Shown here in pieces: positions 17,837 to 23,299 of a DNA stretch of 33,730 bases. The translations under genes were made by a program, and so were the position numbers. The notes below the pieces were generated by a model that was given only the letters and a program-made list of their open reading frames with translations, searched no databases and was not told the origin of the DNA. This stretch comes from Bacillota bacterium (lineage in GTDB: Bacteria; Bacillota; UBA994): positions 1 through 33,730 of the forward strand of contig QLUC01000003.1 in NCBI GenBank assembly GCA_018725275.1, read 5' to 3'. Position 1 is the stretch's first letter. Each line of letters starts with the position of its first letter.

Positions 17837-18071
17837 CCTCCGTTCTAAATAATCAAAGCGTGCATAGAATGATTAGTTAAGAAATCGTAGTGCTAGTAGT
17901 AAGGGCTGTGGAGATGTTATTAAGTGGGGAAGATGTAGAGCACATCGTCTCTAAAGGGCGCTGTTAGGTTGTGAGTAATTGTCATCAACTATGCGGCGAG
18001 CTAGGGATAAAGTTGGTCCATAAAATTAGTCCACAAGAAAAAGTGGATAAAGTGAGCAAGGGTGTTGATTA
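17837..18071. other. oriC, dnaA-dnaN intergenic part with basal unwinding system
   Basis: Minus strand TTAATAACA/ATCTCCACA overlapping boxes, GCCC, then TACTACTAGCACTAC trios (17888-17923) and an AT-rich tail. Further degenerate boxes such as AGTGGATAA at 18042-18050. Confidence 0.85.
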
Positions 18072-19397
18072 TATAGTTTTTAACTTTAGCTCAATTTCTC
18101 GGATAATAGCCGCAAAAGTAGGGTCATTGACCATGTCGGTGGAGATTTTATCACAAGCATGAATTACGGTGGTATGGTCGCGGCCGCCAAATTCTGCGCC
18201 AATGCGCGGCAAGGAGGAGTCGGTGTTTTTACGGGCTAGGTACATGGCAATCTGGCGCGGCAAAGAAATATTGCGGGTACGTTTCTTGGCGGAGAGTTCC
18301 TCTACCTTTATACCAAAGTGGGCGGCAATAACTTTTTGGATATCACTTATTTTTATAACCCTAGTCTTCTCCTCGGGGAATAGATTGCGCAAGACTTCAT
18401 CGATGAGTTCTCTGGTGATGGGTTTTTTACTGAAAGAAACATAGGCCATGATACGAATCAGCCCGCCTTCAAGCTCCCGGATGTTGCTGTTGATGCGACC
18501 TGCCAAGTAGGAGGTCAGATCTAGGGGGATGCGGAAGTTCTCACTCTCTGCTTTCTGGCGGAGGATGGCCACCCGGGTTTCGAAATCCGGGGGCTGAATG
18601 TCCGTGATTAATCCCCATTCGAAACGGGAGCGCAACCGGTCCTCTAAGGTGGCAATCTCTTTTGGCGGACGGTCGCTCGAAAAAATTATTTGTTTACTGG
18701 CTTCATGGAGGGCGTTAAAAGTATGGAAAAATTCTTCCTGGGTCTGCTCTTTCCCTGCCAAAAATTGTATATCATCCACTAACAACAAGTCCACCGACCG
18801 GTATTTGCTGCGAAACTCAACTGTCTTGCGCTGTTGTATGGAAGAAATGAATTCGTTAGTAAATTTTTCACAAGAAATATACACTACTTTCATTCTGGGA
18901 TAGTTCTGGAGGACATAATGACCTATGGCATGCATAAGGTGGGTTTTACCAAGACCGACGCCGCCATAGATAAATAGAGGGTTGTAGGCTGTGGCCGGCG
19001 CTTCGGCCACAGCTAAAGAAGCGGCATGGGCGTAACGATTACTTTCCCCAATCACAAAATTGTCAAATGTGTAGCGGGGAGTAAGCAAAGGCATGTCCTC
19101 AGAGTTTACCCGCTCGGAGGAGAGAGATGAAGATTTTGCCGATACTTCGGAGGCTAAGATAAACTTAACCGTCATTTCTCTATTGAGTACAGATGAGAGG
19201 GATTTCTGCACCGTAGGGGTATAGTTGTTTTCCAGCCAGTTGCGGTTAAATTCGGTGGCCACGATGATGGAGAGGGTATTACCTTGCAGCTGATGGGCTT
19301 GGCAGGGATAAAGCCACGTTTCGAATTGATGCTTGCTGATTTGAGATTCGAGCAAACCAAGTGTAGTCTGCCAGATCTCGGCTGCGGTCATTGGCAT
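18069..19397 (-). CDS. dnaA: Chromosomal replication initiator DnaA
   Basis: YTFDNFV, YNPLFIYGGVGLGKTHL, DDIQFL, RLRSRFEWG, SNIRELEG and FGGRDHTTVIHA. Confidence 0.99.
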   Translation of the reverse strand: MPMTAAEIWQTTLGLLESQISKHQFETWLYPCQAHQLQGNTLSIIVATEFNRNWLENNYTPTVQKSLSSVLNREMTVKFILASEVSAKSSSLSSERVNSEDMPLLTPRYTFDNFVIGESNRYAHAASLAVAEAPATAYNPLFIYGGVGLGKTHLMHAIGHYVLQNYPRMKVVYISCEKFTNEFISSIQQRKTVEFRSKYRSVDLLLVDDIQFLAGKEQTQEEFFHTFNALHEASKQIIFSSDRPPKEIATLEDRLRSRFEWGLITDIQPPDFETRVAILRQKAESENFRIPLDLTSYLAGRINSNIRELEGGLIRIMAYVSFSKKPITRELIDEVLRNLFPEEKTRVIKISDIQKVIAAHFGIKVEELSAKKRTRNISLPRQIAMYLARKNTDSSLPRIGAEFGGRDHTTVIHACDKISTDMVNDPTFAAIIREIELKLKTI

Positions 19398-19881
19398 ATG
19401 CTAGCCTCCCCAGAAAGTGTAGACGTACCTATTCTCCGCGAAGTGCGTCGAATCCTATGTGGACAAAGTATAAGCTGGACTCTTTTTTTGCGGATAGCTC
19501 TGGATATGATATACACAATCGCTGTGGATGTCTAGTTTTTGACGTTAAGGGCTTGCTACTGCTCTATATTTCGCTCTGTGTCGAGCTGTTTCGACATCGG
19601 AATAATCCACAAAGATATCCACAGGTGTGGAGAACATTTGTACGGGTCACTAAAATGGTTCGCCAGTATTTTCGTGCACTGCTCTGATTGCAGCCATCGA
19701 CAGCGGGCGAGGGCAGTTGACAAGATGCACAAGTTATCTACAGAGTTATCAACAGGTGTGCATAAACGACACCGTTCGACATGGATAATAGCTTGGTTTT
19801 GATGATTGCGTCAGGCAGAGCGTTTTGATATAATCGCAAGGATAGTCTTGCTCTATAGGCTCTGAAGGGAGAGTGAATATA
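19398..19881. promoter_or_regulatory. oriC upstream part / dnaA-rpmH divergent promoter region with DnaA boxes and Spo0A boxes
   Basis: DnaA-box-like 9-mers at 19458 (TGTGGACAA), 19603 (TAATCCACA), 19615 (ATATCCACA), 19626 (TGTGGAGAA), 19734 (TTATCTACA), 19746 (TTATCAACA) and 19757 (TGTGCATAA). TTCGACA occurs at 19590 and 19775. Confidence 0.85.
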
Positions 19882-20016
19882 TTGAAGCGTACATTCCAGC
19901 CAAATAATCGGCAACGCAAGAAAGTGCATGGTTTTCGCGAAAGAATGAGCACCGCTAATGGGCGTAAAGTGTTAAGCCGCCGCCGTTTAAAGGGAAGAAA
20001 AGTATTGTCTGCCTAA
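19882..20016 (+). CDS. rpmH: 50S ribosomal protein L34 (not in the ORF track)
   Basis: Translated by hand from TTG: [44 protein letters not shown]; RBS AAGGGAGAG. Confidence 0.98.
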
Positions 20017-20020
20017 GGAG

Positions 20021-20371
20021 ATGGGTGACCTGCGACCTTGCTACCGACTCAAGAAAAGAAAAGAGTTCTCTCATGTTTTTGCCACGGGGCGCTCTGCCGC
20101 TGGGAATCTCATGGTGGTCTACAGTCTCTCGAGGGATGGCGGTAGTGTTCGTGTCGGATTTTCTGCCGGCAAAAAGTTAGGTAATGCTGTTTTACGCAAT
20201 CGGGTCAGGCGCAGAATTAAAGAAATTGTGCGCAAGTTTCTGCCACACCTGGTGCCTGGCAGAGACTTAGTGGTCATTGTGCGAGCGGGGGCAGTGAAAG
20301 CGACGTGCTCAGAACTGGAAAAAGAATTTCAATTGATCTGCCGTCGCTTAAAATTGTGGAGTATGCCATGA
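20021..20371 (+). CDS. rnpA: Ribonuclease P protein component
   Basis: [33 protein letters not shown] (RNR motif); follows rpmH. Confidence 0.96.
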
Positions 20372-20577
20372 AGAGGGCGGCCCTTTTGTTGATTGACCTC
20401 TACCAGCGATATATTTCGCCCCTTAAGGCTCCTAGTTGTCGCTTTCGCCCTACTTGTAGTCAGTATGCTAAAGAGGCAATTCTGCGACATGGGGCTTTTT
20501 GTGGTATTGCGTTGGCCTTTTGGCGTGTGTTGCGCTGTCACCCTTGGTCTTTAGGGGGATACGACCCTGTGAAATAA
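20368..20577 (+). CDS. yidD: Membrane protein insertion efficiency factor YidD
   Basis: [31 protein letters not shown]; ATG 20368 overlaps the rnpA stop (ATGA). Confidence 0.95.
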
Positions 20578-20600
20578 GCTCTGGAGGGATGATTGCTTTA

Positions 20601-21293
20601 ATGGAAATTATCAATGTCATGCTAAAGACGATGCTAGACTATTTTTTCAGCTTTACACAGAACTATGGGGTGGCAGTCGTACTGTTGTCTTTAGCGGTCA
20701 CCGTCGTTACTCTGCCTTTAAACATTAAGCAGATGCAGTTTACCCGGGCTATGCGCCGCATCCAGCCCGAACTTGACGAAATCAAGAAGAAGTACAAAGA
20801 CGATAAAGTGAAGATTAATGAGGCCACCGTGGCGCTATGGTCAAAGTACAAGGTCAATCCCGCCTCGGGCTGTTTGCCAATGCTTATTCAGATGCCCGTC
20901 CTCTGGGCGATGTTTAATGTGCTGCGCATTCCCGATATTTTTTCTAAACAGCCCTACTTCTTTGGGCTCAATATGACCATGCCAAGTCCCGAGGTCGCTA
21001 TCATGACCTTACCATGGTTTTATTGGATTCTTCCTGTGTTGACAGTGGGGACTACATTTTGGCAGTCAAAGCAGAGTATGCAGAGTACTGACCCTTCCGC
21101 CCGCACCATGTTGTACATCATGCCCTTGTTCATGGGATGGTTTACCCTGCAGTTTCCCACAGCACTCGCGCTGTACTGGGTGTCGCGCAATGTCTTTACG
21201 GTAGGACAGGAGTATATCTATGCTATGTTCGTATCCCGTGGGACGGTGGAAGTGGAGGCGGGTACCAGTGAAAAGCGTCGAAAAGAGCGCTAA
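20601..21293 (+). CDS. yidC: Membrane protein insertase YidC/SpoIIIJ (short form without lipoprotein signal)
   Basis: NYG.AVVLL, LPL.IKQ, IQPEL..IKKKYK, NPASGCLPMLIQMP and ALALYW; synteny; RBS GGAGG. Confidence 0.95.
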   Translation: MEIINVMLKTMLDYFFSFTQNYGVAVVLLSLAVTVVTLPLNIKQMQFTRAMRRIQPELDEIKKKYKDDKVKINEATVALWSKYKVNPASGCLPMLIQMPVLWAMFNVLRIPDIFSKQPYFFGLNMTMPSPEVAIMTLPWFYWILPVLTVGTTFWQSKQSMQSTDPSARTMLYIMPLFMGWFTLQFPTALALYWVSRNVFTVGQEYIYAMFVSRGTVEVEAGTSEKRRKER

Positions 21294-21888
21294 GAGTGTC
21301 GGCGATGGTGTAGAGAGTGCCTTAGCCGAGCTCGGCCTATCCCTAGAGCAAGTCGAGGTGATAGTGCTCGAGGAGCCCACCAAGGGCCTTTTTGGCCTGT
21401 GGGGTGGGAAGCCTGCGCGGGTGAGGGTGACGAAGAAAACCACAGTTTTGGAGACGGCGGTGGTTTTCTTGACCTCTTTACTGCGCCACATGGGAGCTGA
21501 TGACGCCGTTTGTGAAATCACGCGGGAAGGTGCGGATGAGGTAGAAATTGCCATCAACGCCACTAACTCAGGCCTGCTTATCGGCAGGCGAGGACAGACC
21601 TTAGACGCCATCCAGCAGCTGACGGCAGTGATCTACACTCGCTCCGGCGGCGAAAAGCGGTTGCAGATCGACGTTGGGCAGTATCGTGAGCGCCGCAAGC
21701 AATCGCTCATTGAACTCGCCAAGAGCCTGGCCGAGAGAGTGCGCCGCACCGGTCGCAAAGCGGTACTTGAGCCGATGAGCGCCTCAGAACGGCGCATAGT
21801 ACATGTGGCCCTGCAGGACGAAATTGGCGTCTTGACCTACAGTGAGGGGGACGAACCCTACCGCAAAATCATTATCGCGGTGCGCTAA
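21268..21888 (+). CDS. jag: RNA-binding protein Jag/KhpB/EloR
   Basis: Jag_N (EEPTKGLFGL), KH (GLLIGRRGQTLDAIQ) and R3H (ERRIVH) domains; GTG 21268 after GGAGG, overlapping the end of yidC. Confidence 0.95.
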   Translation: MKSVEKSAKSVGDGVESALAELGLSLEQVEVIVLEEPTKGLFGLWGGKPARVRVTKKTTVLETAVVFLTSLLRHMGADDAVCEITREGADEVEIAINATNSGLLIGRRGQTLDAIQQLTAVIYTRSGGEKRLQIDVGQYRERRKQSLIELAKSLAERVRRTGRKAVLEPMSASERRIVHVALQDEIGVLTYSEGDEPYRKIIIAVR

Positions 21889-21946: not shown

Positions 21947-23299
21947 GTGTACCAGGAAGTCATTGCCGCTATTTCTACAGCCCCCGGAGAGGGCGGTATT
22001 GCCATAGTGCGCCTTAGCGGGGATGGGTCTATAGAAGTAGTCAAGAAGTGTTTTCGGCGTCGCAAGGGGCGCTTCTCCCCGCGTCCATGGCGAGTCTATC
22101 TAGGTGACATTGTGGATAGCGATGGAAGGCGCATCGATGAGTGTTTGCTCACATTTTTTCGCTCTCCTAATTCTTACACCGGGGAGGACGTAGTCGAGCT
22201 TGGCATTCATGGGGGCGCGTTTGTCGCCGTCCGGGTGCTCGAGCGCTTGCTCGAGTGCGGCGCGGTGTTGGCGGCCCCCGGAGAATTTACCAAGAGAGCC
22301 TTCCTCCAAGGGCGACTTGATTTGAGCCAGGCGGAGGCCGTCATAGATGTCATTCGCGCTAATTCCGATGTGGCTTTGCAGAATGCTAATCTCCACCTGA
22401 GAGGTGCCTTGACGGCAGAAATTAGGGAGGCTGAGCGGGCACTGCTCCGCGTGCTGGCGTTAATTGAGGCGCAAATTGATTTTCCGGATATGGACACGCC
22501 TAAGGTAACGCTGTCTGAGGCTGGGGCAGAGTTAGAGGCTGCTCATGCTGTTTTGAGCAAACTACTCGCTAGTGCCAGGCGTGGCCGGGTGGTCAAAGAG
22601 GGTTACCGAGTGGTCATAGTCGGTCGCCCCAATGTGGGGAAGAGCTCGTTGTTTAACTACCTTGCCGGTCAGGAGCGAGCAATTGTGACCGATATCGCCG
22701 GCACCACCCGCGACATTTTGGAGGTCAGTCTTAATATTAATGGCCTGCTCGTCAACTTGCTCGATACTGCGGGTTTGCGTGGTGATGGTGATTTTATTGA
22801 GAACCTAGGTATGGCGCGCACGGAGCAAGCCATGCTTGAGGCTGATTTACTATTGGTGTTGCTTGATGGTTCTACGAACTTAACGACCGAAGATGAGGCC
22901 CTCTTGGCGAAGACATCAACAACGCGACGTCTCCTCGTCGTCACCAAGGTTGATTTACCACTCCAGGTAACTTTGCCACCTGCTGAAAACGCAATTCTAG
23001 TGAGCACGGTGACCGGGGGGGGCATGGTCGAGTTAAGAGAGACCTTAGCCCGCGAGGCTGGGCGCACTATCGGCGGGGAGCATAATTTGCTCCTTACTAA
23101 TATCCGGCACACGGAAAGCGTGCGGCGAAGCCGAGAGGCCACGAGGGCCGCGGTAGAGGCGGCTCGCGCGGGTTGGGAGTTAGAGTTGGTCGCGATAGAT
23201 GTGCGCCAAGCCTTAGACTATCTCGGTGAGGTCGGGGGAAGGACGGTCTCTCAGTCTCTCACCGATGAAATCTTTGCACAGTTTTGCATTGGGAAGTGA
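21947..23299 (+). CDS. mnmE: tRNA modification GTPase MnmE
   Basis: IAAISTA, SYTGEDVVE, GRPNVGKSS, GTTRD, DTAG and C-terminal FCIGK. Confidence 0.98.
   Translation: MYQEVIAAISTAPGEGGIAIVRLSGDGSIEVVKKCFRRRKGRFSPRPWRVYLGDIVDSDGRRIDECLLTFFRSPNSYTGEDVVELGIHGGAFVAVRVLERLLECGAVLAAPGEFTKRAFLQGRLDLSQAEAVIDVIRANSDVALQNANLHLRGALTAEIREAERALLRVLALIEAQIDFPDMDTPKVTLSEAGAELEAAHAVLSKLLASARRGRVVKEGYRVVIVGRPNVGKSSLFNYLAGQERAIVTDIAGTTRDILEVSLNINGLLVNLLDTAGLRGDGDFIENLGMARTEQAMLEADLLLVLLDGSTNLTTEDEALLAKTSTTRRLLVVTKVDLPLQVTLPPAENAILVSTVTGGGMVELRETLAREAGRTIGGEHNLLLTNIRHTESVRRSREATRAAVEAARAGWELELVAIDVRQALDYLGEVGGRTVSQSLTDEIFAQFCIGK

Follow-up and report, generated by a model that had tools for sequence, protein, structure and literature searches.

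Does a YidC insertase that lacks the arginine in transmembrane helix 1 (TM1), the textbook catalytic feature of YidC/Oxa1/Alb3 insertases, carry its groove charge somewhere else? The question is raised by the yidC gene of a Bacillota bacterium (UBA994), encoded in a 33,730-nucleotide stretch of DNA that we refer to as the window. The original prediction, made from the letters alone, was that the essential positive charge of the hydrophilic groove had moved from TM1 to TM5 in a natural compensatory swap. The TM1 arginine has been called "highly conserved" among family members (PMC4252904) and "strictly conserved" in "all homologs" (PMC8920935); these statements, like those cited below from PMC6827917, are taken from the portions of the articles available to us.

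The gene sits in a housekeeping context, the rpmH-rnpA-yidD-yidC-jag-mnmE origin cluster with dnaA and a predicted oriC adjoining:

18069 to 19397, reverse strand: dnaA (PF00308, E = 3.1e-78), divergent from the rpmH cluster
19873 to 20016, forward strand: rpmH (ribosomal protein L34), a 47-aa ORF named from its sequence and position, which opens the rpmH-rnpA-yidD-yidC-jag cluster
20021 to 20371, forward strand: rnpA (RNase P protein component; PF00825, E = 9.1e-29)
20368 to 20577, forward strand: yidD (membrane protein insertion efficiency factor; PF01809, E = 7e-31)
20583 to 20588, forward strand: GGAGGG, likely ribosome-binding site for ATG 20601, 12 nt upstream of that ATG, read directly from the sequence
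20601 to 21293 (stop included), forward strand: yidC, short Gram-positive-type YidC/Oxa1 insertase, 230 aa from ATG 20601
21220 to 21888, forward strand: jag/khpB, with Jag_N, KH, and R3H domains (PF14804, PF13083, PF01424)
21947 to 23299, forward strand: mnmE (trmE), tRNA modification GTPase (PF12631, PF10396, PF01926)

Residue numbers in this study follow a 234-aa reading of yidC from ATG 20589 (ORF 20589-21290; protein P0001). Translation probably starts at ATG 20601 because GGAGGG directly abuts ATG 20589, and the nearest homologues (P0002-P0005) are 230 aa long, matching the product read from ATG 20601. P0001 scores well above the cut-offs of PF02096 (60KD_IMP; E = 4.7e-49, 166.9 bits against a cut-off of 35, profile positions 1-161 of 163) and TIGR03592 (183.1 bits against 84.3) and falls below that of the SpoIIIJ equivalog NF002803 (132.4 against 377 bits); judged by these profiles it is a generic short YidC and, by the NCBI criterion, no SpoIIIJ orthologue. 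Across the whole window we counted 16 one-mismatch matches to the DnaA-box consensus TTATCCACA compared with 5.6 expected, a number reached in 0 of 100 shuffles, and seven of the 16 fall in the dnaA-rpmH intergenic region at 19458-19765, which is probably oriC. The first 74 bases (21220-21293) of the listed jag/khpB ORF, which starts at ATG 21220, fall within the end of yidC; the Jag_N domain of this ORF begins at residue 23, and the true start may lie further downstream.

Four residues of P0001 bear on the groove charge:

20700 to 20702, forward strand: Thr38 (ACC), at the TM1 site of the canonical groove Arg (E. coli R366, B. halodurans YidC2 R72, SpoIIIJ R73)
20709 to 20711, forward strand: Thr41 (ACT), SpoIIIJ Ile76 equivalent, one turn below position 38 on TM1
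21177 to 21179, forward strand: Trp197, opposite E. coli Tyr517 in the phmmer alignment, retained as Trp in 25 of 25 swap proteins
21186 to 21188, forward strand: Arg200 (CGC), TM5 groove position (E. coli S520, SpoIIIJ G231), within LYWVSRNVF

We aligned P0001 to solved YidC chains with phmmer. Thr38, which lies within AVVLLSLAVTVVTLPL (translation of the 20589-21290 ORF), falls opposite E. coli R366 and the B. halodurans YidC2 groove Arg, with Pro43 opposite Pro371 as counted in the native-numbered chain 4utq_A. The threonine that had been read in place of SpoIIIJ Arg73 thus holds in coordinates, frame, and alignment to R366/R72, and P0001 carries Thr38 where the canonical TM1 groove charge (R366/R72/R73) would be. 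Another basic residue at the R73 position would have undone the prediction; there is none at or beside it, as TM1 residues 30-42 contain no Arg or Lys in P0001 or in any of the 25 swap proteins, by which we mean those with an uncharged TM1 site and the TM5 Arg. The second half of the proposed exchange, an Arg where SpoIIIJ has Gly, also stands: the CGC codon is confirmed, and Arg200 aligns with E. coli Ser520 and with the Bacillus Gly three residues past the conserved Trp, while Asn201 lies opposite E. coli Asn521. The equivalence of R200 and G231 is based on the W-x-x-G spacing (Trp228 and Gly231 in the available text of PMC6827917) together with the B. halodurans chain alignment.

The predicted structure has the YidC fold. 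An AlphaFold2 model of P0001 built from a 66-sequence alignment (pLDDT 89.1, pTM 0.83) has helices at residues 26-40, 42-68/73-87 (a hairpin), 96-112, 143-163, 169-186, and 191-215, and the PDB entries closest to it in fold are crystal structures of E. coli and B. halodurans YidC (TM score 0.64-0.72, rmsd 2.4-3.1; B. halodurans YidC 3wo7_A by Foldseek, TM 0.71/0.74, rmsd 2.5). Model and Foldseek matches agree on five core helices, with TM1 and TM2 joined by a cytoplasmic coiled-coil hairpin. In the E. coli crystal structure the groove residues given in the available text are Thr362, Arg366, Thr373, Gln429, Thr474, Ser520, Asn521, and Gln527 (PMC4252904), and the N-tail of Pf3 touches groove residues 517, 520, and 524 (PMC8920935). 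The TM5 equivalents here are W197, R200, N201, T204, and Q207, whose i, i+3, i+4, i+7, i+10 spacing defines one helical face. Placed by homology to these groove residues, the Arg200 side chain would point into the groove.

Engineering of B. subtilis SpoIIIJ provides a direct precedent. R73A inactivates the protein (PMC6827917), and R73 can be replaced by an Arg at any of Ile72, Ile76, Gln140, Leu144, Trp228, and Gly231 (PMC6827917, citing Shimokawa-Chiba 2015). The rescue of an R73 mutant by Arg at the TM5 Gly, invoked in the original prediction, is in print, at second hand, for Gly231. We found no description of natural groove-charge relocation in a full-text literature search, which missed most subscription-journal papers.

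We surveyed the class by whole-genome searches in 27 species genomes from three families (f1, f2, f3; the window's genome, G000, belongs to f1) and then read residues and codons genome by genome. The TM5 Arg is present in all 10 f1 genomes, including the window's, and in all 10 f3 genomes, and the TM1 site is uncharged (T, M, I, or V) in all 19 of these that are readable there; in the twentieth (G008), yidC is cut by a contig end. The third family, f2, has TM1 Arg and TM5 Gly in six of six readable genomes (of seven). Covariation of the two columns, proposed as a check of the swap, is perfect within the class (20 swap genomes, 19 of them readable at both columns, versus 6 canonical). One f2 genome (G014, 96% complete) yielded no YidC match to the protein query or to the Pfam profile, probably because the assembly has a gap around the origin and not because the gene is truly absent.

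The relocated Arg is fixed clade-wide and has a single origin. We built a 42-row maximum-likelihood tree without the three trait columns, omitting the G008 fragment (L072), L091 because of its very long branch, and L074 as a duplicate of L073. A single branch (UFBoot 90, SH-aLRT 76) separates the 19 swap rows from all others, so that one change is needed, and the swap rows are sister to f2 (90/80). A quick tree that contained L091, L073, and L074 but again not L072 recovered this grouping and supported the swap clade with an SH-aLRT of 94. This topology points to a swap that arose once and then became fixed. The TM5 Arg is encoded by four different codons across the 20 genomes (CGC in 13, AGA in 4, CGT in 2, CGG in 1), and the residue is therefore held by selection rather than by recent descent. 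Position 41 also differs between the families, being Thr in 19 of 19 swap genomes and Ile or Leu in six of six canonical sister genomes; in the wider protein set described below, Thr occupies this column in 25 of 25 swap proteins and also in 27 of 189 canonical proteins, which makes Thr41 weaker evidence of co-adaptation. A scan for clade-specific columns (shared by 90% or more of the swap clade and found in no more than 10% of canonical sequences) returned only F51, W84, F118, P122, L141, Q162, T191, and R200, most of them outside the TM core.

We next looked beyond the class. A word-indexed search of 5.8 billion proteins returned 85 homologues, which together with the query gave 86 aligned proteins (MAFFT). 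Twenty-four of the 86 (P0001-P0023 and P0028; 43-100% identity) combine an uncharged TM1 residue (T in 5, M in 18, I in 1) with the TM5 Arg. In P0024-27 and P0029 (about 43% identity) the TM1 column is Arg and the TM5 column Gly. The other 57 aligned proteins all lack Arg at the TM5 column and, setting aside four fragments that miss one column, all carry R or K at TM1 except P0062 (Asn). Adding the best 150 of 17,389 exhaustive HMMER hits (E ≤ 0.001) to the query and 85 homologues gave 235 proteins, a sample biased towards relatives of the query, of which 229 were readable at both columns. Here, Arg at TM5 column 200 occurs in 25 of 43 proteins without TM1 R/K and in 0 of 186 with it; the 25 are related sequences and represent one evolutionary event, so that the covariation at this column is statistically weak on its own. 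Counting a basic residue at either column 200 or column 204, the figures become 28 of 43 without and 0 of 186 with the TM1 charge.

The three additional proteins carry Arg204, one turn lower on TM5 and equivalent to E. coli Thr524, with Asn (P0062), Ser (P0155), or Gly (P0211) at TM1. A further example, L091 (G011:C1:3348401-3352012; TM1 Asn with Arg204), comes from a genome of the canonical family f2, where it is a second YidC copy; one TAG lies inside its protein-search match, and its Pfam match is in an open 206-aa frame. The Arg204 motifs include VVRIF, LFRIGQ, and VIRSLQ. P0155 and P0211 share 49% identity; all other pairs among the four share 23-34%. The remaining 15 of the 229 proteins have a non-basic TM1 residue (Gln in nine, Asn in two, Tyr in two, Ser, Phe) and no Arg at column 200 or 204 (P0092, P0101, P0120, P0124, P0130, P0132, P0161, P0164, P0165, P0178, P0186, P0194, P0226, P0229, P0235). 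Most of those with Gln at TM1 are long forms of 480-560 aa. Ten of the 15 are free of R/K throughout the scanned TM-core columns, and five have Arg at TM3 column 146, a residue also found in 9 of 186 canonical sequences. Separately, a MAG labeled Clostridia bacterium contains a YidC-like ORF (L050, DATKVU010000176.1) in which Gly occupies the TM1 Arg column and the TM5 Arg is absent, as read from a tblastn match that spans query residues 25-111 only. As aligned, the TM1 charge is clearly not universal among YidCs, and the charge that reappears falls on the predicted groove face of TM5. We tentatively suggest, at somewhat less than even chances, that the groove charge is movable in nature and that groove-face TM5 sites have replaced TM1 more than once, the Arg204 type having then arisen in at least two or three other lineages at below 35% identity (P0062, P0155/P0211, L091). 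If YidCs that lack the TM1 charge are functional sole copies, the claim of strict conservation in all homologues is wrong, and if the suggestion is true, a natural mutant series is available to decide between electrostatic-attraction and groove-hydration models.

How the swap protein is to be interpreted depends in part on copy number. YidC is essential in bacteria where it has been tested, and a single PF02096 match was found in the window's genome (93.8% complete, 227 contigs) and in 18 of the 20 swap-clade genomes, which include two of 9 and 10 contigs (G019 and G022; 99% and 98% complete); as the sole copy of an essential protein, the swap-type YidC is predicted to be functional. The opposite reading, that it is a specialised or degenerating paralogue and that a canonical, unassembled YidC is the essential one, draws on the fragmented state of these MAGs, any one of which might be missing a second copy, and on an additional canonical YidC (325-aa open frame, TM1 Arg and TM5 Gly) in two genomes of the clade, G003 and G005. 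These extra copies (L074, G003:C44:2342-5653; L073, G005:C44:4300-7611) sit on a very long branch, and their aligned parts are identical even though the two genomes belong to different genera of the window's family. They could derive from a shared mobile element, recent transfer, or a contaminant contig, and an ancestral gene explains the pattern less well than a shared mobile or contaminant contig does. Against degeneration, moreover, the window's yidC occupies the canonical origin cluster and contains no stops, and its Arg is conserved across synonymous codons; with single copies even in the near-closed G019 and G022, we regard a paralogue as very improbable. Less credible still, to the point of being negligible, is an alignment or assembly artefact in which the true R73 equivalent lies elsewhere in TM1. 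We found no support for it: residues 30-42 lack R/K in all 25 swap proteins, phmmer against PDB chains agrees with MAFFT (86 proteins, 235 proteins, and locus ORFs), the invariant anchors Gly27 and Pro43 (E. coli Pro371) flank the position, and many independent assemblies contain the same sequence. A pseudogene was rejected together with an artefact on the intact frame, the conservation of Arg across synonymous codons, the recurrence across assemblies, and the agreement between aligners.

A more substantial alternative is that the groove needs no charge at all, staying hydrophilic through Trp197, Thr41, Asn201, Gln101, and Gln207, with Arg200 kept for some other reason (lipid head-group contact, helix packing, or substrate preference) and the two changes not compensatory. 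In E. coli, an aromatic or polar residue 517 makes R366 dispensable, and with suppressors even an acidic residue is tolerated, according to the available text of PMC8920935; the equivalent of 517 is Trp here. The fixation of Thr41 in the clade and the 15 of 229 YidCs with a non-basic TM1 site and no Arg at column 200 or 204 are also what such a reading would expect. It sits poorly, however, with the distribution of the charge, which at two columns that both lie on the groove face is absent from all 186 proteins with TM1 R/K and present in 28 of the 43 without. The groove charge is, furthermore, essential in the Gram-positive systems tested, B. subtilis SpoIIIJ and S. mutans YidC2, as far as the available text describes them (PMC8920935, PMC6827917), and rescue by the engineered G231R demonstrates that the TM5 site is able to carry the function (PMC6827917). 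On balance, we consider it unlikely that the charge is superfluous.

We conclude that Arg200 is probably the functional groove charge, a natural, clade-fixed counterpart of the engineered R73A/G231R protein, in agreement with the compensatory swap first proposed from the letters; alignment, covariation, single origin, sole-copy status, and the published Gly231 precedent all support it. On this view, P0001 would be a housekeeping YidC that uses a hydrophilic groove, open to the cytoplasm and to the lipid phase, to insert small or simple membrane proteins. Arg200, one turn cytoplasmic of the conserved Trp, would supply the single positive groove charge in place of TM1 and perform the role of R73. 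With an uncharged TM1 site (T/M/I/V) and Thr one turn lower, the TM core would keep a net charge of +1, and the groove should therefore still attract or hydrate polar substrate tails.

The swap may have been reached in two steps, with gain probably preceding loss. A single-base change from Gly (GGN) to Arg (CGN/AGA) in TM5 would likely have given a viable +2 intermediate, and a second single-base change would then have removed the TM1 Arg, for example AGG to ATG (Met, Ile, and Thr are each one base from AGR). Support for this order comes from a SpoIIIJ variant with both R73 and R231, which is among those recovered in a library selection (PMC6827917, strain table in supplement file 5). Were loss to come first, the route would cross a state with no groove charge, and in B. 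subtilis that state is lethal.

Taken this way, evolution would conserve the groove charge and not one particular residue, and a two-step route through a +2 intermediate becomes plausible. The clade offers natural proteins with which to ask whether the charge attracts acidic substrate tails or just hydrates the groove, and the TM1 Arg appears to be an unsafe diagnostic for annotating or filtering YidC homologues. The relocated-charge YidC is a variant of a very well-known protein and no new system; it is noteworthy but not astonishing, given that transplant experiments had predicted such variants can work.

Compared with the YidCs of known structure, B. halodurans YidC2 (3WO6/3WO7) and E. coli YidC (3WVF, 6AL2), P0001 shares the five-helix core, the C1 hairpin, and the conserved groove residues Gln101, Trp197, Asn201, and Gln207, at 28-31% identity. 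It differs from both in the position of the groove Arg, which in those proteins is on TM1 (R72, R366) with Gly or Ser at the TM5 site, and it differs from E. coli YidC in that the latter has an extra TM helix and a P1 domain. The Arg-less YidC mutants of E. coli and S. mutans resemble the swap clade in that the TM1 Arg is dispensable as long as the groove stays hydrophilic (available text of PMC8920935), but they compensate through a neutral polar or aromatic residue 517 or through suppressors, whereas the swap clade would keep the full charge elsewhere. Groove-charge position and number also vary in B. subtilis, where PY79 carries the natural YidC1 allele Q140K and where library variants reach +2 or +3 (PMC6827917, in the portions available); the R73+R231 library variant matches the proposed evolutionary intermediate of the swap clade. 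These variants keep R73 or add charge, while the swap clade appears to have moved its single charge and lost the TM1 Arg. The closest counterpart is engineered SpoIIIJ (YidC1) with R73A and G231R, in which the charge is likewise off TM1 and on the TM5 Gly site three residues past the Trp, and the TM core carries a charge of +1 on a short Gram-positive scaffold, as in P0001. That protein has an N-terminal lipoprotein signal, which P0001 lacks, and its TM1 site is Ala, compared with T/M/I/V in the swap clade, where Thr is in addition fixed at the Ile76 equivalent. Finally, SpoIIIJ R73A + G231R was made in the laboratory, in a species that has two YidCs, whereas the arrangement described here is natural, fixed in two families, and mostly that of the sole YidC.
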